Below are positions 2,497-57,174 of a stretch of DNA of 57,771 nt, one piece after another; position 1 is the stretch's first letter, and every line of letters begins with the position of its first letter. The notes beneath the pieces are model-generated. The model was not told where the DNA came from and did no database searches. It worked only from the letters and a program-made list of their open reading frames with translations. The stretch lies in assembly GCA_964621955.1 (NCBI GenBank), contig CAZUMN010000004.1, positions 1 through 57,771 of the forward strand, written 5' to 3'. This DNA is from an uncultured Thermococci archaeon. Its GTDB lineage: Archaea; Methanobacteriota_B; Thermococci; Methanofastidiosales; Methanofastidiosaceae. A program made the translations under genes and the position numbers.

Positions 2497-4239
2497 ATGA
2501 ACAAATTATTTAATTCTAAAAATAAAGACACTCACGATCATACCTTAGACATATACAGAAATATTTTAGAAAATACTTTTGACGCCATTCTTTTGGTAGA
2601 TGATGAATTCAGATACATTGACGCAAATCCAAGTGCATGTGCCCTTTTAGGATACAGTAGAACAGAATTAATGAATAAAAAAGTAGGAGACCTCACCCCC
2701 CAAAGAAATCTAGAAATGGGAAAAAAAATATGGATGGACTTCTTAAAAAAAGGAAATCAAAAAGGAGAGTATATTCTCTTAAAAAAAGATCTAAAAGAAA
2801 TTAATGTTGAATATCATGCTGTTGCAAATATCCAGTCAGGGATACATCTTTTCATTATAAACGATGTTACTACAAAGAAGTTAGCGGAAAATACATTGAA
2901 AAATAAAGAGAGCATCCTCCAAGGTATATTTGAATCAAGTCCCGTGGGCATCAATCTCATACAGGATAGAAAATTTATTTGGAGTAACGACATGATGAGT
3001 CAAATAACTGGTTACTCCTTAGATGAGATAATAGGTAGTAATACTAGATTTTTATATCTTTCAGATGAAGACTACGAAAAAGCAGGTTATGATTACAATA
3101 AGAATTTTGCCAAAGGTAAGATAGCGGAAATTGATACCAGATGGAAAAGAAAGGATGGAAAAATAATACATATTCATAAAAAAATGAGTCTTTTAGATCC
3201 GAATAAACCTGATAAAGGGTATATAACATCAGTGATGGACATAACAGAGCAGAAAAGAGCTGAAGATTTGTTAAAGCAGAGTGAAGAAAAATATAGGGAA
3301 TTAGCGAATTCTTTGCCGGAAATAATTTTTGAAACTGATGAAAAGGGAAATCTAACATTTGTAAACAGAAATGCACTTAATATTACGGGCTATACAACAG
3401 AGGATTTTGAAAAAGGATTGAATGCAATGCAATTATTAATTCCTGAAGAGAGAGATTTGGGAAGAGACAACATAAGGAAAATATTTACAGGAAAAAAATC
3501 AAACGGTTTTGAGTATACCGCCTTAAGAAAAGATGGCGGCACATTTCCCATTATAATTCATTCTAGTGCCATTATGCATAATAATAAACCTATTGGCTTA
3601 CGAGGAATAATATTTGATATTTCTGAAAGGAAAAAGGCAGAGAAAAGGATAATGGAAAGTGAGAAAACATTGAGAAGTATATTAACAGCTGCTCCTGTAG
3701 GGATAAAACTAGTCAAAGATCGACAGATAATATGGTGCAATAACAGTATGATTGAAATGACAGGTTACGCTCTCGAAGAATTAACTAATAAAAATTTAGG
3801 ATTTTTGTACCCCAATAACGAAGAATATGATAAAGTCGGGCAGGTATTATATGACAAATGGGCTAACGAAGAGTATAGGGAAATTGAAACAATATGGAAA
3901 AAGAATAGTGGAGAATTAATAAACTGCCATATTAGGATTAGTCCACTTGATCCAACTGATTTTAATAAAGGCATGATTGAAGTTATTACAGACATTACAG
4001 AAAGTAAAAAAGCCCTGAAACAGCTTGATGAGAATCTAGAATATTTTGCTCATCTAATAGACCATATAAGAAATCCATTAACAATAATTTGTGGGTTTGC
4101 ACAAGTTGAAATTGAAAATGAAGTTACTAAACGTCGATTTTTAAAACAGGTAGGTGCAATTGAAGAGATTTTAAAACAACTGGATCAGGGCTGGATGGAC
4201 ACTGAAGATACTAGAAAATTTTTGAAGAAGTATATGTAA
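2497..4239 (+). CDS. Multi-PAS (four PAS/PAC) protein with C-terminal HisKA-like helix pair, no HATPase
   Basis: Four PAS starts (ILENTFDAI, IFESSPVGI, LANSLPEII, ILTAAPVGI) with PAC ends (DITE/DISE); tail FAHLIDHIRNPL...LDQGWMDTEDTRKFL. Confidence 0.88.
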   Translation: MNKLFNSKNKDTHDHTLDIYRNILENTFDAILLVDDEFRYIDANPSACALLGYSRTELMNKKVGDLTPQRNLEMGKKIWMDFLKKGNQKGEYILLKKDLKEINVEYHAVANIQSGIHLFIINDVTTKKLAENTLKNKESILQGIFESSPVGINLIQDRKFIWSNDMMSQITGYSLDEIIGSNTRFLYLSDEDYEKAGYDYNKNFAKGKIAEIDTRWKRKDGKIIHIHKKMSLLDPNKPDKGYITSVMDITEQKRAEDLLKQSEEKYRELANSLPEIIFETDEKGNLTFVNRNALNITGYTTEDFEKGLNAMQLLIPEERDLGRDNIRKIFTGKKSNGFEYTALRKDGGTFPIIIHSSAIMHNNKPIGLRGIIFDISERKKAEKRIMESEKTLRSILTAAPVGIKLVKDRQIIWCNNSMIEMTGYALEELTNKNLGFLYPNNEEYDKVGQVLYDKWANEEYREIETIWKKNSGELINCHIRISPLDPTDFNKGMIEVITDITESKKALKQLDENLEYFAHLIDHIRNPLTIICGFAQVEIENEVTKRRFLKQVGAIEEILKQLDQGWMDTEDTRKFLKKYM

Positions 4240-8199: not shown

Positions 8200-8886
8200 A
8201 TGACTGGAGACCTTAAAAAGGAGCTATTGGAGGTAATTAGTTCAGTGGGCCCAGTATCGATAGTGGTGCTTCTCTTTCTGATTTTTATCTCAAAATCAGA
8301 AATACCACGATTCATATTAGGATCTATAATGGTAATAAGTGGAATTACTCTATTTCTTCTGGGGATTAACTTAGGCTTCTTACCTTTTGGTCAAGCTATT
8401 GGAGCAGAATTACCTATGAGAGGCTCTTTAAGCTTTTTAATAATAATGAGTTTTATAATAGGTGTTATTACTACAATAGCAGAACCAGGAGTAAGGGTAC
8501 TTGTTAATCAGGTAGAGTATGCATCTGGAGGCAGCATTCCAGAACTTATTTTGTTTCTTTCAATAAGTGTCGGAATTGGTATTTTTTTATCATTGGCAGT
8601 GTTGAGGATTATTTATGGAATAAGCTTTTCATATCTATTTATAGCAGGATATATCTTCATAATTGCTTTATCCTTCTTTACTCCTTCCACATTTGTAGCC
8701 ATAGCTTTTGATGCTGGAGGGGTTACAACTGGCCCAGTTACTGTGCCTATTATTTTATCTTTAGGAATAGGAATTAGTTCCGTTTTAGGAGGAAAATCAG
8801 CGCTATCCGATGGATTTGGACTTATCGGCCTTTCTTCAATTGGACCCGTCATAAGTATAATGGTGTTGGGGGTATTATACGCTTGA
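8200..8886 (+). CDS. DUF1538 family membrane protein
   Basis: TIAEPGVRVL and AFDAGGVTTGPVTVP motifs. Confidence 0.88.
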   Translation: MTGDLKKELLEVISSVGPVSIVVLLFLIFISKSEIPRFILGSIMVISGITLFLLGINLGFLPFGQAIGAELPMRGSLSFLIIMSFIIGVITTIAEPGVRVLVNQVEYASGGSIPELILFLSISVGIGIFLSLAVLRIIYGISFSYLFIAGYIFIIALSFFTPSTFVAIAFDAGGVTTGPVTVPIILSLGIGISSVLGGKSALSDGFGLIGLSSIGPVISIMVLGVLYA

Positions 8887-9599
8887 TAGAATTTATTCAA
8901 AATCTTAAAGAAATTATAATTGAAGTAGTTCTTGTATTATTACCTCTATCGGTATTATTTTTAATATTTCAGAAATATTTACTTAAACTACCAAAGCAGT
9001 ATACAAAAAATCTCCTTAAGGGTATCTTTCTGACTTTTGTGGGCATGATCCTTTTTTTTCAAGGTATAGATATTGCTTTTCTCCCTGCAGGAGATAGTAT
9101 AGGAGTGTATTTTGGTAATCTCCAATCTAACTGGTTGTTGATACCTTTAGGATTTTTAATGGGATTTTTAGTTACTTATGCAGATCCTGGAGTAATAATA
9201 ATTTGTAATGAAATTGAAAAAGCTTCTAACGGTTTTCTAGGAAGGAATATGGTAAAAAAAATTTTATCGTTTAGCGTAGCTTTTTTTGTATCCCTCGCTA
9301 TGGCCAAACTTGTTTATGGTGTAGCCCTAATTACTATAATTTTGATAGGTTACAGTATTGTGATCTTACTAACATTAGTTTCAGATAAGCAGTACACAGC
9401 CATTGCCTTTGATTCTGGAGGTGTTGTGACTGGCCCTATGGCAGTTACTTTTTTGATGGCTATGTCTTTGGGCGCAGCTTCTGCTATGGATGGAAGGAAT
9501 CCATTAATAGATGGGTTTGGCCTTATTTCTCTAATAGCGTTGGCCCCAATAATACCATTAATGCTATTTGGATTAATAATTCGTTATAAAGGAGGTTAA
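8883..9599 (+). CDS. DUF1538 family membrane protein (second paralog)
   Basis: TYADPGV and AFDSGGVVTGPMAV; overlaps upstream paralog by 4 nt. Confidence 0.88.
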   Translation: MIEFIQNLKEIIIEVVLVLLPLSVLFLIFQKYLLKLPKQYTKNLLKGIFLTFVGMILFFQGIDIAFLPAGDSIGVYFGNLQSNWLLIPLGFLMGFLVTYADPGVIIICNEIEKASNGFLGRNMVKKILSFSVAFFVSLAMAKLVYGVALITIILIGYSIVILLTLVSDKQYTAIAFDSGGVVTGPMAVTFLMAMSLGAASAMDGRNPLIDGFGLISLIALAPIIPLMLFGLIIRYKGG

Positions 9600-9602
9600 A
9601 AA

Positions 9603-9956
9603 ATGGATGATGAACATAAAGGATGCGACCTTATAGTAACTATCGTTAAAAAAGGATGCTCAGAACTGATAATTCAAGCTTCAATTAAAGCAGGTGCCAA
9701 GGGAGGAACTGTTCTATTTGGGAGGGGTACTGGAATCCATGAACATCAGAAAATACTAGGAATCCCTATAGAGCCAGAAAAAGAAATAATATTAACTGTA
9801 GTAAGTAAAACACAGACTGATGATATTCTAAAAGCCATAAGGGAATCTGGAGAATTAGATAAACCTGGAATGGGAATCGGATTTGTAATTTCTCTTGACA
9901 AAGTAATTGGAATGTGCCATTTAATGTCTGATGGAACAATTATTTGCAAATACTAA
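9603..9956 (+). CDS. P-II family signalling protein
   Basis: GAKGGTVLFGRGTG, EPEKEIIL, KPGMGIGFV. Confidence 0.85.
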   Translation: MDDEHKGCDLIVTIVKKGCSELIIQASIKAGAKGGTVLFGRGTGIHEHQKILGIPIEPEKEIILTVVSKTQTDDILKAIRESGELDKPGMGIGFVISLDKVIGMCHLMSDGTIICKY

Positions 9957-11436: not shown

Positions 11437-13023
11437 TTGAAACGAGAGGAAGACAAATCAAAAGAAGAGCTTATTGAAGAGCTAGGAATACAGCGCTCAA
11501 AGATAGCTGATCTTGAAAAAATAAAAAATAGATTAGAGGAACTTGAAAAAGAAAAGGATATTCTCCTTGACAATCTACAAGAACGGGTAAAGGAACTAAA
11601 TTGCCTATATGACATCTCAAAGATAAATGAAGAGCCAAATATGCCCCTTGAGGAATTATTTCAAAAAATTGTAGAAAAAATACCTCTTGGATGGAAATAT
11701 CCAGAAATAGCATGTGCTAGAATTAATCTGGATGGACAAGAATTTAAAACAATGAACTTTAGAGAAACTAAGTGGAAGTTGGATGCTCCGATAAGTTATT
11801 ATAAAAATAATATTGGAAAACTTGAAGTGTTTTATCTTGAAGAAAAGCCAGACCTCGAAGAAGGCCCTTTTCTTACAGCCGAAAGAAAATTAATTCTTGC
11901 CATAGTAGAAAAATTGGGGCACATCATAGAAAGAAAATATTCGGAGCAGGCATTGAAGGAAAGTGAGCAAAAATTCAGAACAGTTTTTAACAATGCAAGT
12001 GATGCAATATTTATTCATGAACTTGATGGGAACTTTATTGAAACTAATCAGATTGCATCTGACCTTTTAGGATATGACAAATTGGAGCTTCTAAATATGG
12101 CTCCCAGCGACATTCATCCACCCGAATATGTTGAAATGCTAAATGAAATGTTTGAGGAACTTAAAAAGAGAAGCTACTATTGTTTTGAAACAGAGATTGT
12201 GACAAAGGATTATAAACTAATCTCAGTTGAAATCTGCAGTAAAATTATCAAACTTAAGAAAAAAACTGTAGTCTTGAGCATTGTAAGAGACATCACAGAA
12301 AGAAAGCTAACAGAAGAAAAGATGAAACGCCAGTTGATGAAGTTTAATCTAGAAGCTGGAAAAGTCTATCTAATAAAAGAAACAAAAAGCCTATTTTCAA
12401 TTGAAGCCTTTAATGACCTGTTGAAAGTTGGTTACTCTGGATACATACTTACAAGGTCCGCTGAATCGGAGTATAATGGACAAATTAAAGGGAAATACAA
12501 CTATTTATGGATTTCAGAAAAAGATAAAAGAAGTTCTCTTTCTCCAGATTTTACAGAAATTGAAAAATACTTAGAGGACATACCCAGAAAAAGCTTTGTT
12601 TTGATAGATAGATTGGATTATCTGCTTTCCAAAAATGGATTTATTAAATTATTATCTTTTGTACATCATCTAAGGGAGATCGCATACCTTAGGGGGATTA
12701 CAGTAATAATTTCGGCCGACTCAGAATTATTCAGCGATGTTGAAATGAAGCTTATAGAAAAGGAGACATCTGACATCTTTCCTGTGGAAAAAGAAAAACT
12801 CCCTGACAATATGCTAGAAATCCTGACATTCGTTTATAACAAGAACTTAATCGGAGTTAAGCCTACTTTTTCAGATATAGGCAGAGAGATTAATATAACA
12901 AGACCAACTATTGGCAAAAGAATGAGTTTTCTAACAACGTCAAACTATCTTATAGTCTCGATTAAGGGTAGAAACAAGGTTGTCGAGTTAACTAACAAAG
13001 GCAGAGAACTTTTTTTGGCATAA
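11437..13023 (+). CDS. Coiled-coil/GAF-like/PAS/DUF835/wHTH signalling protein
   Basis: LQERVKELNCLY; PAS (VFNNASDAI...DITERK); DUF835-like VLIDRLDYLLSKNGF; C-terminal FSDIGREINITRPTIGKR...LTNKG. Confidence 0.75.
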   Translation: MKREEDKSKEELIEELGIQRSKIADLEKIKNRLEELEKEKDILLDNLQERVKELNCLYDISKINEEPNMPLEELFQKIVEKIPLGWKYPEIACARINLDGQEFKTMNFRETKWKLDAPISYYKNNIGKLEVFYLEEKPDLEEGPFLTAERKLILAIVEKLGHIIERKYSEQALKESEQKFRTVFNNASDAIFIHELDGNFIETNQIASDLLGYDKLELLNMAPSDIHPPEYVEMLNEMFEELKKRSYYCFETEIVTKDYKLISVEICSKIIKLKKKTVVLSIVRDITERKLTEEKMKRQLMKFNLEAGKVYLIKETKSLFSIEAFNDLLKVGYSGYILTRSAESEYNGQIKGKYNYLWISEKDKRSSLSPDFTEIEKYLEDIPRKSFVLIDRLDYLLSKNGFIKLLSFVHHLREIAYLRGITVIISADSELFSDVEMKLIEKETSDIFPVEKEKLPDNMLEILTFVYNKNLIGVKPTFSDIGREINITRPTIGKRMSFLTTSNYLIVSIKGRNKVVELTNKGRELFLA

Positions 13024-19790: not shown

Positions 19791-21695
19791 TCATATCCCT
19801 AGTTTTTTTCTATTCGATTCAATGTGAGAAAGGATTGCATCAGATGCTTTAATTGGATCTTTCTCAACACTTAATATCCCGCCTGTAATATCTTTACAGT
19901 CGACGGTCAAAAGTTTTACAAGATTTGGGCCACCTGTCACAGGAGGAACTGGGTTGACATAGGTATATAATCCGAATGCCAATGCAAATATCGCATCTAT
20001 AGTTGCCTTCTGCTCCATATATTCTGGTGCAACTGCAGCAACGGGTAAATCTGGTACAGGCGCATCCCCTAAAGCCTTGGAAATTACACCAATTAAATCT
20101 GCAAGTCTTCCTGTGTCAGTACATGTCCCATAACTTAGTACTGGAGGGATATTCAATAGAGTGCATAATTTCTTTAATCCTGGGCCTGCCTTGTCTTTAG
20201 CTTCTAAGCTACAGAGCCCACCAACTTGTACTGCGGCATTTCCACATCCAAGAGATAAAACTAGTATATCCCTCTTTATCAACTCAGTTACCATTTTTAT
20301 TGTGTGAACATCCTGGCCTGAATCTCTTAATGAAGTACAAGAAACCATTCCGGCGACGCCTCTTATTGTACCATCTTTAATTGCATTTAATAGAGGTTCA
20401 ATTGTTCCACCTAATGCTTCAACTATACTTTCAGTTGAAAATCCAACTATCGCTTCTTTAGTTGGAAGGCCTACAACAGGGTCAATTGAACTCCTTCGCT
20501 CCTTGAAGTTGTCAATTGCCATTTGTAAAAGTGATGCAGCCTGTTTCTCAGCCTCGTTTGGGAGATAATCCACTCTTTCAGTAATGCCTTCAAATGCTAC
20601 AACCTCGCTTGCAGGCACCAATTTGAATTTGTATTTGTTTGCATATATTGGGTCAATCGGCATGGAACAGTTCATATCTGCCACAAATATATCTATACAG
20701 CCACTTGCCATTATTGCTTCCTGCATAATCCAGTTACCAGTGTATCCATAGAAAACATTGTCCATCTCCCATCTTTGAATTATTTCTTGGCCTGTTTCAA
20801 TATTTGCTATTATTCTAAGGCCTTTGGCGCCTACGGCCTTTGCCTTTTTTTGCCATTCTTCTTTTCTTGCAAGCTGGATCATTGCAAATCCCAAGAAAGG
20901 TTCATGACCATTTGGTAAAACATTGACATAGTCTGGATCTAAAATTCCCAGATCTACTCTCATTTTATGGGGTCTTGGAATCCCAAAAAGAATGTCTTGA
21001 GTAAATTCATTAATTATTTGACTTTGATACGCCATTGCTATTCCGATTCTCATTGCTTTTAAGGCTAAACTTACATAATATCCATCTACATTTGTTAAAC
21101 AAGAACTTGTGGAGAACATTATTTCCCCATGAACCCCTCCAGGGAATATCCCAAGTTTTTTCCATGCATTTTTTCTCTCGGGCGGGGCTAATATTTCTAC
21201 AATTTTGCTTTGCTCAGAATATTTTCTATTAAAGTCCTCTTCAACAAAATCACTAAATCTTAAAGCAATTTCGTTAATGCTCCCACTTGTATCCACTCCA
21301 AGTCTTTTAGCAAATGATCTTAATTTTTCTGGCTCTTTTATTTGAAAAGGAGTTTCACCTTTGGCAGTTGCCCTTAGAGTTTTTATTGTTTGTTCGGTGT
21401 GGTAATGGTAAGTTGAAGTACCCAATACATTCCTCAAAAGCATCATTCTCATTGCCATGCCATCTGCGGTAATCCCACAGACCCCTCTTTTATCAATTGA
21501 TGCGTCAGAACGACATGGACCATTTGAACAAAGGTCACATCGAACTCCGCCTTGGCAGAAAGGACATCTTTTATCAGGGTCTCCCCCAAATCCTTGAGCT
21601 TCGTATCTATCCCAAATATTTGTTATATTGTCATCTTTAATTTTCTTATACATTTTTTTTACAGATTCATGATGAGATACTCTCTCGCCTTCCAT
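19791..21695 (-). CDS. cooS: CooS-family CO dehydrogenase-like protein (deviant C-cluster ligands)
   Basis: CPFC...CDLCSNGPC...VCG, GHEP, DMNC, VSC, LGC, GTCTD, EQKA. Confidence 0.92.
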   Translation of the reverse strand: MEGERVSHHESVKKMYKKIKDDNITNIWDRYEAQGFGGDPDKRCPFCQGGVRCDLCSNGPCRSDASIDKRGVCGITADGMAMRMMLLRNVLGTSTYHYHTEQTIKTLRATAKGETPFQIKEPEKLRSFAKRLGVDTSGSINEIALRFSDFVEEDFNRKYSEQSKIVEILAPPERKNAWKKLGIFPGGVHGEIMFSTSSCLTNVDGYYVSLALKAMRIGIAMAYQSQIINEFTQDILFGIPRPHKMRVDLGILDPDYVNVLPNGHEPFLGFAMIQLARKEEWQKKAKAVGAKGLRIIANIETGQEIIQRWEMDNVFYGYTGNWIMQEAIMASGCIDIFVADMNCSMPIDPIYANKYKFKLVPASEVVAFEGITERVDYLPNEAEKQAASLLQMAIDNFKERRSSIDPVVGLPTKEAIVGFSTESIVEALGGTIEPLLNAIKDGTIRGVAGMVSCTSLRDSGQDVHTIKMVTELIKRDILVLSLGCGNAAVQVGGLCSLEAKDKAGPGLKKLCTLLNIPPVLSYGTCTDTGRLADLIGVISKALGDAPVPDLPVAAVAPEYMEQKATIDAIFALAFGLYTYVNPVPPVTGGPNLVKLLTVDCKDITGGILSVEKDPIKASDAILSHIESNRKKLGI

Positions 21696-21764
21696 TTTTA
21701 CTCCTCACAAATTTATCTTTGTTTTATTATTATATATAGTTTTCTTTAAAAAAAGGAAAATAAA

Positions 21765-22085
21765 TTAATCTGTTAAGCCCAATAATATTGCCAGATTATC
21801 CTTAGCTTTGAGAGAGTGGGGTGCATTCTTAGGCATGAAAATAAATACTCCAGGAGTCATTTCAATCTCTTCATCAACAAGTGTAAAGGTACCTGTCCCA
21901 CTTAAGACTTGTACAATTCCCGCCTTAGTTGAAGTGTGTGTGTCTATATTTGTCCCAGCAGATAGACACATCAATGTATAGTTGTATGTTTTGGACAATG
22001 CTAATACAGTACTAAAAATGCCCTCTTTTGGAAACTGCATAGTTTTATTCAAATCTTTCCAAAATCCTTTTTCCATTATATCCAT
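21765..22085 (-). CDS. Cupin domain protein
   Basis: HTS...VQVLSGTGTF...MPKNAPHSLKA. Confidence 0.85.
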   Translation of the reverse strand: MDIMEKGFWKDLNKTMQFPKEGIFSTVLALSKTYNYTLMCLSAGTNIDTHTSTKAGIVQVLSGTGTFTLVDEEIEMTPGVFIFMPKNAPHSLKAKDNLAILLGLTD

Positions 22086-22909
22086 TCCTCCTTTATTATA
22101 TCTCCTTTGATCCCAACTACTATTAATTTTATCGGAATCTTTCGAGTTGCACTATCTAAAGCCTTCTTGGCTATTTGAAGAAGACCAGAGCAACACGGAA
22201 CTTCCATTACTAAAACTGTTAATGTGTTAATCTTTGCCTCATCTATCATCTTTTTTATTTTCTCTACATAGACATCTCTATTTGAATCAAGTTTTGGGCA
22301 TGCTATTACTAATGTCTTACCTTTAAGGAAATCTTTGTGAAAATCGCCTATGGAAAAGGCTGTACAATCTGCGGCAAGTAAAACATCCTTCCCAAGAAAA
22401 TAAGGTGCATTTGGTGAGACCAGATGAAGTTGAATTGGCCATTGTCTAAGTTGAGAGGACCTCTTTCCTGTCTCATTTACTTTATTTTCTTCTTTTGAGA
22501 ATTCCATAATTTTTGAACCGGGACAAGATGCCCTATGTAAATGACTTTCTTCCTTAATAGGATTTTCTATACCTTTCTCTTCAAGGAAATCTTTTGCCTG
22601 TTTTAGATATTTATCTGCACCGTGATCCTTTAAGTGCTGAAGATGAGCCTTGATAGTATTTTTTCCATGTTTTACTATATTCTCCATTACTTTTCTTTCA
22701 TCGTATTCTTCAGCTTCTCTTTCTTCAACAAATATAGCACCTTCTGGACAGTTTCCAATGCAGGCTCCAAGTCCATCACAAAATAGATCACTAACTAATC
22801 TCGCTTTGCCATCTATTATTTGAAGCGCTCCTTCAGGGCAATTGGGAACACAAATCCCACATCCATTACATTTTTCCTCATTAATATTGATTATTTCTCT
22901 CTTTACCAT
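22076..22909 (-). CDS. 2x[4Fe-4S] ferredoxin-domain protein
   Basis: CNGCGICVPNCP, CDGLGACIGNCP, QWPIQL, AADC, IACPKLD, MEVPCC. Confidence 0.88.
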   Translation of the reverse strand: MVKREIININEEKCNGCGICVPNCPEGALQIIDGKARLVSDLFCDGLGACIGNCPEGAIFVEEREAEEYDERKVMENIVKHGKNTIKAHLQHLKDHGADKYLKQAKDFLEEKGIENPIKEESHLHRASCPGSKIMEFSKEENKVNETGKRSSQLRQWPIQLHLVSPNAPYFLGKDVLLAADCTAFSIGDFHKDFLKGKTLVIACPKLDSNRDVYVEKIKKMIDEAKINTLTVLVMEVPCCSGLLQIAKKALDSATRKIPIKLIVVGIKGDIIKEEWI

Positions 22910-45021: not shown

Positions 45022-46377
45022 TTATTTTAATTTTTTTAGTACAAGTTCAGCACAAATTTGAACAGGATCTATAGTTGGAGACAAAGGAGGGCTATAACAA
45101 TTCTCAATTTTTGCCAAATCGTTGATCTTAATCCCTTTTTGAACAGCAAAGCCTACTGCAAGTGTTCTAGCAAATATACCTTCTTCACCTATGGCTTGGA
45201 ATCCCAATATATCGCCTTCAGTAGACGCTAGAATTTTGATAATTATCTCTTTATACCCTGGATAATAATCTGCCCTAGATTTACCTTTGTATCTGGCCTT
45301 AACATATTCTATCCCTAAATTCGATAAATTATCTTCTGTTAATCCAAATGCCCCAATTTTTAAATCGAAGAAATCCATTATTGTAAGATTAATTACGGGA
45401 TTTAATTCTAAATTTCCCCCAACAGAATTTATTCCAGCAATTTTTCCACTCCTAACAGCATTTGTTCCTAGGCTTGAAGAAAATTGCTCACCTGTGAAAA
45501 AATATTTAACGCTTGCGCAATCCCCGCAAGCATATATGCCATCAATAGATGTTTGAAGTCTTGAATCTGTCTTTACCCCTTTTTGGATCTCAATTCCACA
45601 ATCTTTAGCTAAATAAGTATTTGTTCGGGTTCCAGAAGCCATTATAATAATGTCTGCATCTATTAATTCATTATCTGCAATCAATCCATTTACTTTGTCT
45701 TCACCAGATATACTAATAACATTCTTATCTGTTACTAGGTTAATCCCCTTACTCTTCAAATAATCTACAATTAATTCACTCATGTCCATGTCGATTTGCT
45801 GCCTTAATGGCCTATTTTCATTAGAAACTATAGTTACATCTAGTCCTCTATTCTTCAGAGCATAAGCCATTTCTAGGGATATCCGACCTGAAATGCACCC
45901 TTTACATCCTGCTTTGCACCCCCATCCATATGCATATATAATTGCTTTTTTTGACGCATCTATTTTTTTGGATAGATCTTTAGCAGCATCTAAAGTTCTT
46001 ATGAAATAGATACCTTCAGGATATTTATGGCCAATTTTATAATTGCATGGGATAGCGCCAGTTGCAAGAATCAGGGAATCATACTCTATTTCAGAATTAT
46101 CTTCAAGAATTACTTTTTTATCGCGGGGATTTATTTTCTTAATTTCTTTTTGAAGCAAAAGTTTTATTTTTTGTTTTTCATAGAATTCTTTTGGAAATAT
46201 TATAAGCTTATCAAAGTTTTCGATATCGCCAGATACTGCATATGGGAGGCCACATAATGAATATTGAGGAGAATTTTGTTTTTCAATTAATGTAATCTCT
46301 GCATTTTTATCAAATTTTCTTGCTTCTAGAGCCGCTTCTGAGCCTGCTGCGCCTCCTCCAACAATTACAAGTTTCAT
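45022..46377 (-). CDS. NADH oxidase/CoA-disulfide reductase family flavoprotein with a Cys insert
   Basis: GGGAAG, YSLCGLPY, ATGA, YACGDC, YSPP; start moved to ATG 46377. Confidence 0.88.
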   Translation of the reverse strand: MKLVIVGGGAAGSEAALEARKFDKNAEITLIEKQNSPQYSLCGLPYAVSGDIENFDKLIIFPKEFYEKQKIKLLLQKEIKKINPRDKKVILEDNSEIEYDSLILATGAIPCNYKIGHKYPEGIYFIRTLDAAKDLSKKIDASKKAIIYAYGWGCKAGCKGCISGRISLEMAYALKNRGLDVTIVSNENRPLRQQIDMDMSELIVDYLKSKGINLVTDKNVISISGEDKVNGLIADNELIDADIIIMASGTRTNTYLAKDCGIEIQKGVKTDSRLQTSIDGIYACGDCASVKYFFTGEQFSSSLGTNAVRSGKIAGINSVGGNLELNPVINLTIMDFFDLKIGAFGLTEDNLSNLGIEYVKARYKGKSRADYYPGYKEIIIKILASTEGDILGFQAIGEEGIFARTLAVGFAVQKGIKINDLAKIENCYSPPLSPTIDPVQICAELVLKKLK

Positions 46378-46492
46378 ATAAATCGTCTCTAAATATAAAA
46401 ATGAAGTATTATTTAAATATATTTTTAATACCATAGGTATGGTATCTAATTAGATATGAAATATAAATTAAAAAAGAATATTTAATATTTCA

Positions 46493-46840
46493 TTAATGCA
46501 ATTTGTCAAGTCTGTTTACTAAGTCATCTTTCATTAGGCAACTGATAGCGTCATCTACTGTTTGTTCCTCAGTGATTACGGCCATTATATTATGTCTAAC
46601 TAAGTCATTATATATTCCTTGTCCCATTCCATAACATATGACTAAATTACAGTCTTGTATGTTATTAATCATACTTGAATGGTCACAGCTACCACACTGC
46701 CCGTTACTTTTTCCAATATTTTGTCGGTATTCTTCTCTAATTATGACGTTTTCTTTTATTTCAAAAACTCTGAACCCTAGAGTTCTACCAAAGTGATGAG
46801 ATATGGTCACTTTGTCGTCAGTTGCTATGGCTACCTTCAT
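46493..46840 (-). CDS. NifX/NifB-family (FeMo-co biosynthesis-like) protein
   Basis: KVAIAT, HHFGR, VICYGMG. Confidence 0.85.
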   Translation of the reverse strand: MKVAIATDDKVTISHHFGRTLGFRVFEIKENVIIREEYRQNIGKSNGQCGSCDHSSMINNIQDCNLVICYGMGQGIYNDLVRHNIMAVITEEQTVDDAISCLMKDDLVNRLDKLH

Positions 46841-46959
46841 AGATACACCTCTTTATGAATAATTATTCATAATATTTATAAATGTTTGCTAGTAAAAATA
46901 ATAAGACTAGTTATAGATAACGATTTAAGTAAAATAGAAGAGAAAAATTTGGTGTTTAT

Positions 46960-47364
46960 TTGGAGATAGGAACATATTTCTTTAGAGATGATTTATTTTA
47001 CTCTAAAACACATGAATGGATGAAAATTGAAGGCGATACATGTATTATCGGGATAGATGATTATTCCCAAAGGGAGATAGGAGAAATAGCTTATATCGAA
47101 CTTCCTGCAATAGGTACTAATGTCAAACAATTTGGATTATTATGCCAAATCGAATCTGTTAAGACTGTGTTGGATATTTTTTCCCCTATGTCTGGAACAA
47201 TAATAGAAACTAATAAAGAAATTGAAAATTCGCCCGATCTTTTGAATACTAAACCATACGATTCATGGATATGCAAGATTAAATCCTCAGACCTTGATGA
47301 AAAAATAAATTTAATGAACATAAATGAATACATAGAATTCATTAAAGAAGTAATAGAAAAATAA
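46960..47364 (+). CDS. gcvH: Glycine cleavage system H-type lipoyl carrier
   Basis: HEW, GIDDYSQ, IESVKT (lipoyl-Lys), SPMSG, PY. Confidence 0.88.
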   Translation: MEIGTYFFRDDLFYSKTHEWMKIEGDTCIIGIDDYSQREIGEIAYIELPAIGTNVKQFGLLCQIESVKTVLDIFSPMSGTIIETNKEIENSPDLLNTKPYDSWICKIKSSDLDEKINLMNINEYIEFIKEVIEK

Positions 47365-52836: not shown

Positions 52837-53496
52837 ATGCATAAAACAGCAAGCATTGACATTGAAAAAGACATCATAAAAGAGAATTCAATGATAGCTA
52901 ATGATAATAGTAATCTTCTAAAGAAATATGGAATTAAATCTTATAATGTAATGGGTGCGATAGGCTCTGGAAAAACTTCCCTAATAGAAATTGCCATTGA
53001 TGCTTTAGTGAAAAAAGGAAAAAATGTTGGTATTATTGCTGGAGATGTAGTTGCTGAGTATGACTCCAATAGATTTAGAAAACACCAATGCCTTGTAATT
53101 CCATTAAATACTGGAAAGGAGTGCCATCTAGATGCACATTTGATATCTCATGAACTGGAAGATTTAGAGGAAAGAGGAATTCTCCAAGACCTCGATTATT
53201 TTATAATGGAAAATGTGGGAAATTTAATATGCCCTTCAGATTTTACACTAGGTGAAGACAAAAGAATTGTTATTGTCAGTGTAAGTGAAGGGGATGATAT
53301 AGTATTGAAACATCCAATAATATTCAGATTTTCAGATATATGCATAATCAATAAAATTGATATCGCCGAAGCTGTTGATGCAAGCCCTGAAAAAATGGAA
53401 AGGGATTGTCTTTCACTTAATCCTAAAATAAAAATTATTAAAACATCTGTAAAGAAAAATATAGGGATATCCGAATGGCTAGATATCTTCGAATAA
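52837..53496 (+). CDS. hypB: Hydrogenase nickel incorporation GTPase HypB
   Basis: GAIGSGKT, CHLDA, ENVGNLICP, NKID. Confidence 0.94.
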   Translation: MHKTASIDIEKDIIKENSMIANDNSNLLKKYGIKSYNVMGAIGSGKTSLIEIAIDALVKKGKNVGIIAGDVVAEYDSNRFRKHQCLVIPLNTGKECHLDAHLISHELEDLEERGILQDLDYFIMENVGNLICPSDFTLGEDKRIVIVSVSEGDDIVLKHPIIFRFSDICIINKIDIAEAVDASPEKMERDCLSLNPKIKIIKTSVKKNIGISEWLDIFE

Positions 53497-53522: not shown

Positions 53523-54362
53523 TTATTTATAGTCTTTCAAAAATTTTCGGGTATCTTCGGTATTCATCCACCCCTCATCCAGTTGTTTTATGACATCATC
53601 GATCCTCTCAATCTGGGCTAATAAGTTTTGTTTTATCTCTGGTTCATTTATCCTAACATGTGTGAAGGTGCTAAGTATTGCCAATGGATTTCGGATATGA
53701 TCAATAAGGTGAGCAAATTTTTCAATATTATTTTCTATTTGAACTAAGGCCTTCTTTCTTTCTGTAATATCTCTAAATGCAGTCACTGCACCGATGATTT
53801 CGGCATTTTGTGTAATGAATTTATTATTGGCTTCTGCCATAATTGTACTGCCATTTTTATGATTTAATTCCAGTTCTATTCTTTCGTCAGAAGTATTGCT
53901 TATCCCTTGTCTATACATCTTAGCTAAAGTAGGGATATATTTGACATCAAGAATCCCCACATCCATGAAACTTTTTCCAATTAATTCTTCTTTCTTGTAA
54001 CCTAATTTTGTTTCAATTCTTTTATTAATGTCTAATATTTTTCCGTATTTATCGACATAAAGAATAATATCTCCAACAGTGTCCAGTATAATCTTATTCT
54101 TTCTCTCACTTTCAGTCATAATTTGAGTGGAAGACTTTATTTTGTTAAATCCACGATTAATCAAGTAAAAGACCAATAAAGAAGTCAATAATATAAATAA
54201 TATATCTTTAAAAGTTTGGAAAAAAACCAACGTAGGAACGTCTTTTACACGCATAGCCAAAAATACGTCAGAAAATATAATCCATACGATTCCTGTAACA
54301 AAATAAACACTGACAATAATAATTGGATTCTCAATAGAAATTTTTTCATCTGGTTGGCCCAT
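53523..54362 (-). CDS. 2TM-PAS protein with the same ATPase-less HisKA-like tail as 2497-4239
   Basis: WIIFSD TM, ILDTVGDII PAS, FAHLIDHIRNPL...LDEGWMNTEDTRKFL. Confidence 0.87.
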   Translation of the reverse strand: MGQPDEKISIENPIIIVSVYFVTGIVWIIFSDVFLAMRVKDVPTLVFFQTFKDILFILLTSLLVFYLINRGFNKIKSSTQIMTESERKNKIILDTVGDIILYVDKYGKILDINKRIETKLGYKKEELIGKSFMDVGILDVKYIPTLAKMYRQGISNTSDERIELELNHKNGSTIMAEANNKFITQNAEIIGAVTAFRDITERKKALVQIENNIEKFAHLIDHIRNPLAILSTFTHVRINEPEIKQNLLAQIERIDDVIKQLDEGWMNTEDTRKFLKDYK

Positions 54363-54482
54363 AATTAATACCTTTAGATTTTTACAGGATTACCTTAGTC
54401 ATGATGAGATATATTATTTTATTAACTTATGGGTAAAGCTAAATCTATAGCGAATGATAAAATAATAATTAATATAAAAAAA

Positions 54483-55118
54483 TTAATCTATAAACTCAAC
54501 ACTTACTTCTCTTACATCCCATAGAGTTTCAATCTTTTCCTTAATCTCTTCTCTTATCGAATTGGCGAATTGATGATTGGAGGGCAGATCTATTGTAAGT
54601 AAAACTTTACCGTTGTTGATTTCTATTTTTTTAATAAGATTTGTTCTTACTACATCAAGCCCTGTTAAGGGATTCATTACCTTCTTCAATCTATTGTTCA
54701 CAATCTCTATTGTTGTAGGGACTTTCTCTGCTATAATTCCATGTTTTTCTTCATAATTTTGAATTGCTGCCCTTAGTCCTTCAACTGCCAATACCGAGCA
54801 GTGCGCTTTTATTGTCGGTAATCCCCCTAAAGCATCTGCTGCCTGTTGCCAAGTAATTTTCTTTGCTTCCTCAAGAGTTTTTCCTTTAGCCATATCAGTA
54901 ATAATCGAGCCTGTTGCAATATTGGATGCACAACCATAAGATTCAAATTTAATATCCTCAATAATCTTATTTACAGGATTTACTTTTATATAAACTGAAA
55001 CCATGTCCCCACATGCAGGGCTTCCTTCGGTTGCTTTGCCGTCTGGATTCTCTATTTTACCTACATTATGTGGATGACGAAAATGTTCCAACACTTTTTC
55101 ACTATATGGAAATTTCAT
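54483..55118 (-). CDS. iscU: IscU/NifU scaffold fused to a DUF59 (MIP18/SufT-like) domain
   Basis: ACGD, YGC, KAHC; C-terminal NPLTGLDVV...VSVEF without the usual Cys. Confidence 0.9.
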   Translation of the reverse strand: MKFPYSEKVLEHFRHPHNVGKIENPDGKATEGSPACGDMVSVYIKVNPVNKIIEDIKFESYGCASNIATGSIITDMAKGKTLEEAKKITWQQAADALGGLPTIKAHCSVLAVEGLRAAIQNYEEKHGIIAEKVPTTIEIVNNRLKKVMNPLTGLDVVRTNLIKKIEINNGKVLLTIDLPSNHQFANSIREEIKEKIETLWDVREVSVEFID

Positions 55119-55133
55119 ATCGTTCCCTCCTTA

Positions 55134-56297
55134 TCAATTCTTACCCAACGGGCTAATCTTTCTAAGTTCCTTTACAACTTCGGATATATTATTCACAATC
55201 AAATCAACATCATCAATAGTATTGTATCTACCAAATGTAAATCGAACAGAACCATGCGCCCTCTCGTGATCACCACCGATACCCATTATAACATGGCTTG
55301 CCTCAAGAGATTTACTGAAGCATGCAGAACCTGTACTGACCGAAAACCCCCTCATATCAAGATGAAGCGTAATTGATTCTCCTTCTACATAGTGAAAGGT
55401 AATGTTCGCATTTTGAGGAATTCTTTTTTCTTTATGCCCATTCAAAGTTGTGTCTGGTATCTCAGATAAAACTCTTTTAATGAGGTGATCTCTCATCTGC
55501 TCCATTTTTTTAGTCTCTTCAGGAGTTACTAGTTCAATAGCCTTTGCAAACCCTACTGCCCCGGGGATATTTTCTAATCCTGCACGCTTGTTAAATTCTT
55601 GAAATCCTCCGTCCATCCACTTTGAGAGCGGAGTATTCTTACGGATAAATAATGCTCCCGTCTCTTTAGGCCCATGGATAGTGTGGGCGGACAAAGTAAC
55701 TAGACCAACTGGAATCTCCCTAACATCAATTGGAACTCTTGTGAAGGTATGTGTTGCATCTGTGTGAAAAAGCACACTTTTATTTTTACAAATGTTTGCT
55801 ATTTTAGCAATATCTTGCATTGTGCCAATCTCTTGATTGGCATGCTGGATTGATACTAGAATAGTGTCTTTTCTTATAGATTTTTCAAGTTGATCAAAGT
55901 CAATCAGCCCATATTGGTCAACATCAAGATAGGTAACTTCAAATCCCTGTTTTTCAAGACTCCTTGCACTATTAAGAACTGGAAAGTCTTCAATTTTTGA
56001 TACAATTATATGCTTGCCTTTTTTTTCTTTCAGTGCCATTGCAACTCCTTTTAAGGCCATGTTACTAGATTCAGTGCTTCCTGAAGTGAAAATAATCTCT
56101 CCAAAATCAGCTCCAATGTAATTGGCAATAAACCCTCTAGCCTCATCTAGAGCTTCTCTCGCTTCAATACCTAATGAGTATCCAAATTCTGAAGTTGCAA
56201 CTGCATATACTTCAAAGAAATATTTTTTCATAGATTCTAAAACTCTTTCGTCCAATCTAGTCGCAGCCGCATTATCGAGGTAAATATTTTTTTCCAT
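55134..56297 (-). CDS. iscS: IscS/NifS-like protein lacking the PLP-binding lysine
   Basis: YLDNAA, FTSGSTES, NQEIG, GSAC, SVRF; SAHT in place of SAHK. Confidence 0.9.
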   Translation of the reverse strand: MEKNIYLDNAAATRLDERVLESMKKYFFEVYAVATSEFGYSLGIEAREALDEARGFIANYIGADFGEIIFTSGSTESSNMALKGVAMALKEKKGKHIIVSKIEDFPVLNSARSLEKQGFEVTYLDVDQYGLIDFDQLEKSIRKDTILVSIQHANQEIGTMQDIAKIANICKNKSVLFHTDATHTFTRVPIDVREIPVGLVTLSAHTIHGPKETGALFIRKNTPLSKWMDGGFQEFNKRAGLENIPGAVGFAKAIELVTPEETKKMEQMRDHLIKRVLSEIPDTTLNGHKEKRIPQNANITFHYVEGESITLHLDMRGFSVSTGSACFSKSLEASHVIMGIGGDHERAHGSVRFTFGRYNTIDDVDLIVNNISEVVKELRKISPLGKN

Positions 56298-56315
56298 TAT
56301 GATTCACCATATTAT

Positions 56316-56771
56316 TTATATAAACAGCGTCATGCTTGATTCCATTGCTTCTTGAATATATGTCCCAACGGAACAATAATCATTAATTAGATCTTGTCTT
56401 AGATCTTCAGGCTTTACTCCCATTACCTCCATAGTCATATCACAAGCCAGTATTTTACCCCCAAGTTCTTTGAAGTCTGTTATCATTTTCTCTAAAGAAG
56501 CCACATTAGCTTTTTCCATTTTCTTCTTTATCATCATTTTACCTAATCCCAGCATATGCATCTTTGAGAGTGGGCCTTTTTCAAGCCCGCCTTTCTTTAA
56601 TCTCTGAAGTCCAAAAAAAGTGAAGTACAAAGAAACTTCCATGCCCATTGAAAGTGCCCCATTTCCAATTATTAGTGCACTGTAAATTTTATCCATATCT
56701 CCGCTATGAACAATTATCGTAGCTTTATTCTTTTTTTGATTAGCTAACTCTTGCATATTTTTATCTTCCAC
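56316..56771 (-). CDS. DsrE/DsrF-like (DsrE2-type) sulfur-relay protein
   Basis: SGDMDK, YFTFFGL, ACDMTMEVMG, TLFI. Confidence 0.88.
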   Translation of the reverse strand: MEDKNMQELANQKKNKATIIVHSGDMDKIYSALIIGNGALSMGMEVSLYFTFFGLQRLKKGGLEKGPLSKMHMLGLGKMMIKKKMEKANVASLEKMITDFKELGGKILACDMTMEVMGVKPEDLRQDLINDYCSVGTYIQEAMESSMTLFI

Positions 56772-56983
56772 GTATTGCCCTCCTCTTCAATGGATACAAT
56801 CTTATACCCTAACGCCTTCACGGCCATTGGTATTTCCTTCTTAGACGCAGGATGTGTTCCCTCTATCTCGACTATATCTCCTACTGCTGCTTTTCGCAAC
56901 GCTTTTCTACATTCAACTAGAGGCACAGGACAAGTTTGACCCTTAACATCAATTTTTATTTCCACCATTTCTTCAACTCCCAT
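56744..56983 (-). CDS. tusA: TusA/SirA family sulfur carrier
   Basis: IDVKGQTCPVP. Confidence 0.9.
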   Translation of the reverse strand: MGVEEMVEIKIDVKGQTCPVPLVECRKALRKAAVGDIVEIEGTHPASKKEIPMAVKALGYKIVSIEEEGNTWKIKICKS

Positions 56984-57174
56984 AAGATTATAAGAATATT
57001 AATATACAACCTTCAATATATTTGATTTTTCAATGTTAAAAGCCTAACGGCAATAAATAATATACTTACAAATTTTTATTACTTTTAAAAAAATATAGAT
57101 TTTAAATATGAAAAATATTCAATATAGAATAGAAGAAATATAAAATAAAATAATAACTGATAGTAATAAAAAAA

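Follow-up and report, generated by a model that had tools for sequence, protein, structure and literature searches.

A widespread tusA-dsrE2-iscS-iscU cassette with a lysine-less IscS suggests a pathway of Fe-S cluster assembly in which the first step is not desulfuration of cysteine by this IscS

A 57,771-nt stretch of DNA from an uncultured Methanofastidiosales archaeon (contig CAZUMN010000004.1; the whole stretch is referred to as the window) contains, on the minus strand (56983..54483), a cassette of four genes that encode a TusA-family protein, a DsrE-like protein, an IscS homologue without the catalytic lysine (hereafter, the cassette IscS), and an IscU-like scaffold fused to a DUF59 domain (IscU::DUF59). 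This cassette is a real, widespread and strongly constrained variant of the minimal iron-sulfur (MIS) and iron-sulfur cluster (ISC) systems, and its gene content suggests that iron-sulfur (Fe-S) clusters may be made by a route whose starting point is something other than desulfuration of cysteine by this IscS. The best reading of the evidence presented below is a sulfur relay that would lead into the complex between the cassette IscS and IscU.

The cassette IscS shows full-length homology to class V aminotransferases (Pfam Aminotran_5, 236 bits, residues 5-366; PDB matches to IscS and NFS1 with E values of 1e-88 to 1e-104), its best solved relative being IscS2 of Archaeoglobus fulgidus (4eb5, E = 2e-104). 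For residue mapping, the window proteins were aligned with E. coli IscS and IscU (NC_000913.3). The lysine that forms the Schiff base with pyridoxal 5'-phosphate (PLP) in the E. coli enzyme, K206, is replaced with T206 (ACT, 55680-55682), H104 with D104 (GAC, 55986-55988), Q183 with H183 (55749-55751), and T243 with L241 (55575-55577); further changes are N35 to V33 and N155 to Q155. Retained are T75, N154, D180, S203, H205 and R352 (R354 in E. coli), as well as the mobile-loop cysteine, Cys326 (C328 in E. coli; TGC, 55320-55322), which is embedded in STGSACFS and conforms to the S(S/T)GSAC motif. The replacements at positions 104, 183, 206 and 241 and the retention of Cys326, along with the IscU, TusA and DsrE cysteines, had been reported in a preliminary description of this locus from its sequence, and all of these statements hold. 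The alignment supports the conclusion that the cassette IscS would be incapable of Lys-dependent PLP chemistry and, given the replacement of H104, Q183 and T243, even cofactor binding is doubtful. The protein also scores below the NCBIfam equivalog cutoffs for NifS (439 versus 530.75 bits) and IscS (389 versus 548 and 378 versus 643 bits). An AlphaFold2 model based on a 13-sequence family alignment was unusable (mean pLDDT 47, pTM 0.43), which reflects the shallow alignment rather than the protein itself, considering that a homologue with ~49% identity has a crystal structure.

Among 121 sequences, namely, the window protein and its 120 best homologues (74-98% identity), D104, H183 and C326 are present in all, and T206 and L/I241 in 119 each. 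When 81 family members were compared with 78 canonical relatives, nine positions turned out to be fixed in each group and yet different between them (family/canonical: V33/N, D104/H, Q151/M, Q155/N, D162/P, H183/Q, T206/K, A247/I, I337/L); the L241/T difference fell under the filter used for this list. From the E. coli alignment and the IscS structure, we take positions 33, 104, 155, 183, 206 and 241 to belong to the PLP/substrate pocket. These pocket positions, changed and yet invariant or nearly so within the family, show directed remodelling followed by freezing rather than decay. Against six other Methanofastidiosa loci, the ratio of nonsynonymous to synonymous substitution rates (dN/dS) is 0.03-0.08 for the cassette IscS, which is indicative of strong purifying selection. 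The values for IscU::DUF59 and the dsrE-like gene are similar (0.04-0.07), and those for tusA extend from 0.04 to 0.21. The low dN/dS of iscS, the intact open reading frames (ORFs) and the invariance of the substituted residues rule out a pseudogene or relaxed selection, the latter having been named in the preliminary description as something that, if seen in homologues, would refute its reading.

In a collection of 1.8 billion cluster representatives, the family corresponds to one full-length 50%-identity representative (69% identity, 597 bits) and two fragments with the same residue pattern, and the next matches drop to 450 and then 395 bits, with at most 51% identity. Judging by this gap, the cassette IscS is an old, discrete family that spans both domains and not, as the wording of the preliminary description suggests, the outcome of a local event in which a desulfurase "has become" a scaffold. 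We searched GTDB, with a single genome for each species, for the peptides SKIEDFPV and DGGFQEF[ND] and obtained 572 stretches; 500 of these code for a relative, amounting to at least ~500 anaerobic carrier species. Gene content was compared in the best 80 of these loci (70-98% identity). In archaea, they come from Methanofastidiosa, Methanosarcinaceae, Methanolobus vulcani PL-12/M, Methanohalophilus, Methanobacteriaceae, Methanomassiliicoccaceae and Altiarchaeales, and in bacteria, from Dehalococcoidia, Anaerolineae, Syntrophales, Thermodesulfovibrionales/Nitrospirota, Clostridia and Atribacterota. Homologues named Methanofastidiosum and a locus with 98% identity assign the window itself to Methanofastidiosa. 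The order tusA-dsrE2-iscS-iscU::DUF59, on one strand, is found in 73 of the 80 loci; two of the other seven, from Anaerolineae, are rearranged, two are cut by contig ends, and three, again from Anaerolineae, contain iscS without the partner genes. The flanks of the cassette are unrelated between lineages, and clustering of the neighbouring ORFs across the 80 loci revealed no fifth conserved gene, such as one for a rhodanese, a transporter, a sulfide:quinone reductase or SufBC. The invariant cysteines are C18 of TusA, C110 of the DsrE-like protein, C170 and C326 of IscS, and C36, C63 and C107 of IscU.

The neighbour-joining tree of the family mostly follows taxonomy, with a few cross-domain neighbours (Atribacterota next to Methanofastidiosa, Altiarchaeales next to Clostridia). 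Together with the 70-79% identity between archaeal and bacterial copies, this topology points to extreme constraint combined with some horizontal transfer. An assembly or binning artefact is unlikely to account for the cross-domain spread because the bacterial loci have bacterial flanks (PolA, RF-1, Lon). Isolates, namely, Methanolobus vulcani PL-12/M and Methanosarcina sp. KYL-1, also carry family members, as do closed chromosomes of metagenome-assembled genomes.

In the three Anaerolineae loci that lack tusA, dsrE and iscU (L013:1621-6343, and also L014 and L018), the IscS is 78-79% identical and is encoded in a cluster with a nitroreductase, a Crp/Fnr regulator, a rubrerythrin, a 4Fe-4S ferredoxin, a stand-alone DUF59 protein, a ferritin-like protein and a ferredoxin-thioredoxin-reductase/rubredoxin-like protein, the DUF59 gene being located directly upstream of iscS. 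This arrangement hints at a redox-stress context and at a direct partnership between IscS and DUF59. It would also be compatible with another purpose of the cassette, namely, that strict anaerobes exposed to oxidative or metal stress would use it to repair or salvage Fe-S clusters that have been damaged; sulfur might then even flow in reverse, from such clusters onto IscS and the carriers, for re-use. Stress-related genes are found near some of the 80 loci (rubrerythrin in 8, Cu-ATPase in 6 and nitroreductase in 6), and genes for superoxide dismutase and DJ-1/PfpI flank one of them (L002), but such neighbours are lineage-specific, occur in a minority of the loci and are not seen at the Methanofastidiosum locus. 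We regard this explanation as very unlikely.

The sulfur relay reading draws on the link between the carriers and the lysine-less state of IscS, for which the control was a set of 80 loci from metagenomes that contain the closest canonical relatives, 78 of them with H104, Q183, K206 and T241. The genes are associated in 76 of the 80 family loci, whereas no TusA or DsrE match was detected near any of the 78 canonical, Lys-bearing iscS genes, with adequate flanks (at least 1.2 kb upstream and at least 1.5 kb downstream) available in 45 of the 80 control loci. The hidden Markov models used here did pick up divergent TusA proteins, at 54-108 bits, in other loci. Fisher's test gives p = 8e-41 when each locus is counted and p of ~1e-4 to 2e-5 when each Lys-less lineage is counted once, for the first six lineages sampled; because the loci are not phylogenetically independent, the latter is the honest figure.

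More broadly, the Schiff-base lysine is missing in 21 of the 150 nearest IscS representatives at 50% identity (P0121-P0270), with the loop cysteine kept in nearly all. Various residues (T, L, D, P, M, G, S, Q, I) take the place of the lysine. A PLP-dead IscS is common in this set of close relatives, which come mostly from metagenome assemblies. We looked up the genomic context of nine other Lys-less representatives, of which eight were informative (P0170 is on a short contig), and in five of the eight, tusA lies beside iscS, as iscS-iscU::DUF59-tusA (P0127), iscS-iscU-tusA (P0140 and P0135), iscS-tusA (P0236) or tusA-iscS, with tusA directly upstream (P0142). The latter has H/A/D/S at the four PLP sites, the same residues as A. 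fulgidus IscS. In P0185, P0149 and P0130, tusA is absent. Taken together, the fixed gene order in the family, the control and these five lineages agree with the co-occurrence of Lys-less IscS with tusA/dsrE that the preliminary description had proposed as a check. In a crude neighbour-joining tree of the 50%-identity representatives, in which A. fulgidus was not included, 15 of the 20 full-length Lys-less sequences fall within one clade of 16 that encompasses the window family and the A. fulgidus-like H/A/D/S representatives. Long-branch attraction is possible in such a tree; its topology suggests one old loss of the lysine, followed by diversification.

Of the two carriers, TusA is readily recognized (Pfam PF01206, 76 bits against a cutoff of 28.6) and contains the active-site Cys18 (TGT, 56930-56932) in TCPVP, that is, a CPxP motif; this cysteine is invariant in 76 of 76 family members. 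According to the family alignment, its likely start is M6 (ATG at 56968, with GGAG 8 nt upstream), and its nearest structures are TM0983 (1jdq) and YeeD/TsuB (8k1r). The DsrE-like protein belongs to Pfam PF13686 (DrsE_2; 115 bits), and its Cys110 (TGT, 56442-56444), in ACDM, is likewise invariant in 76 of 76; here, too, the family alignment favours M6 as the start (ATG 56756), leaving a 13-nt overlap with the 3' end of tusA. The nearest structure, 2qs7 (E = 3.6e-21), is that of Sulfolobus solfataricus DsrE2B (PMC11094781), so that "DsrE2B-like" appears to be a fair name for the second carrier. Both proteins score below the NCBIfam equivalog cutoffs (TusA, 35, 45 and 28 bits versus 78, 79 and 147 for TusA, YedF and YeeD; the DsrE-like protein, 62 bits versus 210 for DsrE2) and, accordingly, are not orthologues of the E. 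coli relay proteins.

The fourth protein consists of an IscU domain (Pfam NifU_N, 141 bits) and a C-terminal DUF59 domain (FeS_assembly_P, PF01883; 56 bits) that is absent from the preliminary description, and this fusion is found throughout the family. In alignment with E. coli IscU, the scaffold residues C36, D38, C63, H106 and C107 are retained, the three cysteines being invariant in 76-77 family members, and LPTIK replaces the E. coli LPPVK. The nearest structure is that of A. fulgidus IscU (4eb5_C, E = 1e-41); the DUF59 domain contains no conserved cysteine. These features bear on the possibility that the cassette does not serve Fe-S assembly at all but rather thiolation of tRNA or a cofactor, or DNA phosphorothioation, with the IscU-like domain acting as a SufU-like sulfur acceptor. 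Such a purpose would be in keeping with the established role of TusA and DsrE/TusD homologues in 2-thiouridine synthesis in E. coli tRNA, and the cassette IscS matches the PADLOC models of DndA and SspA. However, a SufU-like acceptor is ruled out by the retained Asp, His and three Cys, by the lack of the SufU insertion and by the scores (156 bits with the NifU/IscU model versus 64.5 bits with the SufU model, for which the cutoff is 92.5), and the fused DUF59 is itself an Fe-S assembly domain. No dndBCDE, sspBCD, mnmA, thiI or moaD-type gene is conserved nearby, and the DndA and SspA matches reflect shared desulfurase ancestry; DNA phosphorothioation can be dismissed because the dndBCDE and sspBCD partners and the catalytic lysine are all missing. 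We therefore consider a purpose other than Fe-S assembly extremely unlikely.

The four ORFs are intact and as tightly packed as originally reported: tusA and the dsrE-like gene overlap (by 28 nt, or by 13 nt if the likelier start of the latter is used), and the following gaps are 18 and 15 nt. Shine-Dalgarno-like motifs precede the genes, and T-runs are present at both flanks of the cassette. The AT-rich spacer upstream of tusA, which begins past the stop codon and T-run of an indolepyruvate-oxidoreductase-like gene (Pfam TPP_enzyme_C and Fer4), probably holds a putative archaeal promoter of the operon's own, and the T-run after iscU::DUF59 is likely to be an archaeal terminator that marks the operon end.

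The cassette has an uncharacterised counterpart. In Methanosarcina acetivorans, the isc1 cluster (MA0807-MA0810) is drawn, as a cluster of "unknown function", in Fig. S1 of Deere et al. 2020 (PMC7585200), where MA0809 is labelled 'DrsE superfamily', MA0810 'SirA-like', MA0811 HIT, and MA0806 hypothetical. According to the same paper (PMC7585200), IscS1 (MA0808) has the loop STGSACFS and lacks the lysine and other PLP-binding residues, IscU1 (MA0807) is a 24.2 kDa protein, and M. acetivorans also has an active IscS2, and IscS3; IscS1 is marked as proteome-detected in Table 1 of that work. Thus, isc1 and the window cassette share the genes and their order, the loop sequence and the loss of PLP residues, and the size of IscU1 fits the DUF59 fusion; the difference is in the host class, which here is Methanofastidiosa. 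Three Methanosarcinaceae loci (L057, L070 and L081) belong to the 80-locus set, and one of these, from Methanosarcina sp. KYL-1 (L057), has the arrangement HIT-tusA-dsrE2-iscS-iscU::DUF59, with an IscS of 73% identity, which matches isc1. On these grounds of sequence and gene order, orthology with M. acetivorans isc1 is the best assumption for the window operon. The earlier statement that the operon had not been described thus has to be narrowed: it had been drawn, and the loss of PLP residues noted, but no function was proposed for the TusA and DsrE genes. The isc1 paper proposes no sulfur-relay role and does not describe the breadth of ~500 species, the spread across domains or the general link with TusA. 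In the literature we covered, we found no proposal that TusA or DsrE feeds this system, no account of its distribution and no general link between TusA and Lys-less IscS, although these may be mentioned elsewhere. New in the present analysis are the breadth of ~500 species in both domains, the observation that the PLP pocket has been remodelled in concert, and the recurrent, specific coupling of Lys-less IscS with TusA.

The IscS2-IscU complex of A. fulgidus (4eb5, 4eb7, 4hvk) is the best solved relative of both the cassette IscS and its IscU domain and is also Lys-less with the loop cysteine present. In A. fulgidus IscS, D199 occupies the position of the lysine, the protein binds pyridoxamine 5'-phosphate (PMP) and lacks desulfurase activity, and its cysteine ligates the [2Fe-2S] cluster on IscU; it has been proposed to use sulfide, the sulfur source being an acknowledged open question (PMC8918507). 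The cassette IscS shares the replaced lysine, the retained loop cysteine and the adjacent iscU. In A. fulgidus IscS, however, the stacking His is still present, and PMP or PLP is bound without a covalent link, whereas the cassette IscS has D104 in place of this His, and A. fulgidus IscU lacks the DUF59 fusion, with no DsrE2-like gene known to be coupled to the IscS-IscU pair. Archaeoglobus had previously been cited as a case of a single substitution, which understates its divergence, given that in our alignment A. fulgidus IscS also has Ala at the position of E. coli Q183 and Ser at that of T243.

In E. coli, IscS passes persulfide to TusA and then to TusD, a DsrE homologue, so these three types of proteins are known physical partners. 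The cassette resembles the E. coli IscS-TusA-TusBCD relay (PMC13066941) in combining the type I desulfurase fold, a CPxP-containing TusA and a DsrE-fold carrier with an active cysteine; in that relay, however, sulfur is taken from cysteine at IscS and ends up in tRNA, whereas the cassette IscS could not start a relay and is partnered with an Fe-S scaffold. Paired tusA and dsrE-type genes for cytoplasmic delivery of sulfane sulfur also characterize the TusA/DsrE2/DsrE3 cascades of sulfur oxidisers (rDsr and sHdr; PMC11094781), and the nearest counterpart of the window DsrE-like protein is DsrE2B (2qs7), which is soluble and trimeric. In the cascades of sulfur oxidisers, the acceptor is dissimilatory (DsrC/DsrAB or sHdr), whereas the cassette comes without dsr, shdr or rhodanese genes and is found in strict anaerobes, including many methanogens and organohalide respirers. 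The cassette also resembles MIS (MisS-MisU) of archaea and anaerobic bacteria, the least-studied system according to a 2026 review (PMC13066941), which consists of an IscS-IscU pair without HscBA, ferredoxin, IscA, IscR or IscX. Likewise, no genes for a chaperone, a ferredoxin or an A-type carrier are found in the window operon or its flanks. However, MIS has an active PLP-dependent desulfurase and no extra components, whereas the cassette combines a PLP-dead MisS with two carriers and the DUF59 fusion.

The cassette is quite probably a sulfur-trafficking module for Fe-S cluster assembly or repair, and we lean towards the view that its four genes form one functional unit, a derived version of MIS Fe-S assembly, in which the carriers replace the lost desulfurase step. 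In the sulfur relay that we propose, IscU::DUF59 would be the scaffold on which clusters are built and probably also a delivery module. The cassette IscS would make no persulfide from cysteine and would bind IscU as a dimer, as in the A. fulgidus complex, with its Cys326 serving as an acceptor and donor of persulfide, as a transient cluster ligand, the role observed for the Lys-less A. fulgidus IscS, or as both. Sulfane sulfur would arrive on C18 of TusA and C110 of the DsrE2B-like protein, which would stand in for the lost PLP step. We infer the direction of the flow, from carrier to Cys326 of IscS and on to IscU, as well as the order of the carriers and the manner of their loading, for which polysulfide or thiosulfate chemistry in sulfidic habitats and a canonical desulfurase acting in trans are the candidates. 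The complete relay as drawn, with independence from cysteine, is put forward tentatively, as a serious possibility. A bolder version appears quite unlikely: the former PLP pocket, with the invariant V33, D104, Q155, H183 and T206 and the retained D180 and H205, might have been rebuilt into a site rich in Asp and His, able to accommodate Fe(II) or a sulfur species, in which case the four proteins might be a self-sufficient Fe-S machine of a new type, supplied with inorganic sulfane sulfur via TusA/DsrE and possibly with iron via IscS, independent of any desulfurase and spread horizontally among strict anaerobes of both domains.

Several observations weigh against the relay. The lysine is lost without tusA nearby in three of the eight informative lineages, as well as in two Lys-less loci of the control set, and the three Anaerolineae loci encode IscS with no IscU, TusA or DsrE within 4 kb. 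TusA and DsrE carry sulfane sulfur, S(0), so that sulfide (S2-) would have to be oxidised before they could accept it, and the 80 loci show no conserved gene beside the cassette for a rhodanese, a sulfide:quinone reductase or a transporter. When expressed alone, M. acetivorans IscS1 ended up in inclusion bodies, and only IscS2 and IscU2 were detected consistently in the proteome (PMC7585200); in an E. coli isc/suf mutant, no rescue by A. fulgidus iscS2U2 was seen, even when Na2S was added, in an experiment in which tusA was not included (bioRxiv 2024.03.20.586028). Furthermore, four loci contain a canonical iscS-iscU pair beside the cassette, so that cysteine may still be the ultimate source of sulfur.

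The canonical pairs, with H104, Q183, K206 and T241 in IscS and a short IscU without DUF59, are separated from the cassette by 1.5-2 kb in three loci of Dehalococcoidales and one of Altiarchaeales, and they raise the possibility that the same architecture still receives its sulfur from cysteine: a canonical desulfurase encoded elsewhere would persulfurate TusA in trans, and the cassette would be an assembly line specialised for particular targets or for stress. The active IscS2, along with IscS3, that accompanies IscS1 in M. acetivorans and the absence of a conserved sulfur-mobilising enzyme from the cassette are compatible with this possibility, and the term "cysteine-independent" in the preliminary description accordingly goes beyond what has been established. 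Conversely, it is hard to see why a dead IscS would be kept at a dN/dS of ~0.05 alongside a working one, and no second class V aminotransferase or desulfurase, and no SufBC, is encoded within the window. On the whole, we regard supply from cysteine as rather unlikely, although it is a serious rival of the relay. It is improbable, too, that the cassette IscS is solely a structural partner and cluster ligand, with free sulfide entering IscU directly and TusA and the DsrE2B-like protein acting in parallel, in buffering or detoxification of reactive sulfur or in thiol protection. The cluster ligation by A. fulgidus IscS and its proposed use of sulfide, the suggestion that DsrE4-type relatives detoxify reactive sulfur species (PMC11094781) and the lack of tusA in some Lys-less lineages would all fit such a division of labour, but the near-absolute coupling of tusA and dsrE2 to IscS, in a fixed order, with overlapping or nearly abutting genes, and their absence from the 78 canonical loci argue for a direct link.

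The sulfur relay reading touches on two open questions in Fe-S biology, namely, where the sulfur comes from when anaerobes and methanogens do not depend on cysteine desulfurases, and what purpose the dead archaeal IscS serves. Dedicated persulfide carriers that are genetically tied to Lys-less IscS-IscU pairs are a candidate answer to both, in organisms that include environmentally important methanogens, Dehalococcoidia, syntrophs and Nitrospirota. The tie to TusA might also account for the lack of complementation of E. coli by A. fulgidus iscSU in the presence of sulfide, given that tusA had been left out. Because the family is represented in the genetically tractable M. acetivorans, the hypothesis is directly testable. 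The coordinates of the features discussed are listed in Table 1.

Table 1. Coordinates of the cassette genes, their domains and adjacent intergenic regions in the window, and of the canonical iscS-iscU pairs near cassettes in other loci
Feature	Location	Strand	Remarks
TusA-family gene	56744..56983	minus	79 aa as ORF
DsrE2B-like (DrsE_2 family) gene	56316..56771	minus	151 aa from GTG
Cassette IscS (MisS-like) gene	55134..56297	minus	387 aa; type I cysteine-desulfurase paralogue
IscU-like fusion gene	54483..55118	minus	211 aa
IscU scaffold domain	54735..55118	minus	~aa 1-128 of the fusion protein; Pfam NifU_N
DUF59 / FeS_assembly_P domain	54498..54701	minus	aa 140-207, C-terminus of the IscU fusion; Pfam PF01883
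AT-rich intergenic spacer 5' of tusA	56984..57174	minus	~190 bp; read directly
Intergenic region 3' of iscU::DUF59	54363..54482	minus	starts with T-run (TAA, then TTTTTTT)
Second canonical iscS-iscU pair	L043:6710-8369		
Second canonical iscS-iscU pair	L049:7215-8829		
Second canonical iscS-iscU pair	L060:6709-8318		
Second canonical iscS-iscU pair	L078:6701-8297		

Downstream of the cassette, at a distance of 120 bp, the window encodes a PAS-domain protein with an N-terminal membrane segment (53523-54362), with a gene for a HypB-like GTPase next to it (52837-53496). Both proteins have homologues in about six related loci, including those of Methanofastidiosum (L009 and L012), and PAS sensor proteins are plentiful in the window (also at 2497-4239 and 11437-13023). 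Elsewhere in the window, a dihydrolipoamide-dehydrogenase-like flavoprotein (Pyr_redox_2 and dimerisation domain), a small Nitro_FeMo-Co (NifX/NifB-like) protein and a lipoyl carrier of the glycine-cleavage H type are encoded together (45022-47364), a trio that is unusual for an archaeon of a methanogen lineage. A 634-aa protein of the Prismane/CO-dehydrogenase family (465 bits), either a hybrid-cluster protein or one of the CooS type, is encoded near a 4Fe-4S ferredoxin-domain protein (19791-22909), and a tandem pair of DUF1538 membrane proteins is followed by a P-II-like protein (8200-9956), which together represent a recurring trio of unknown function.

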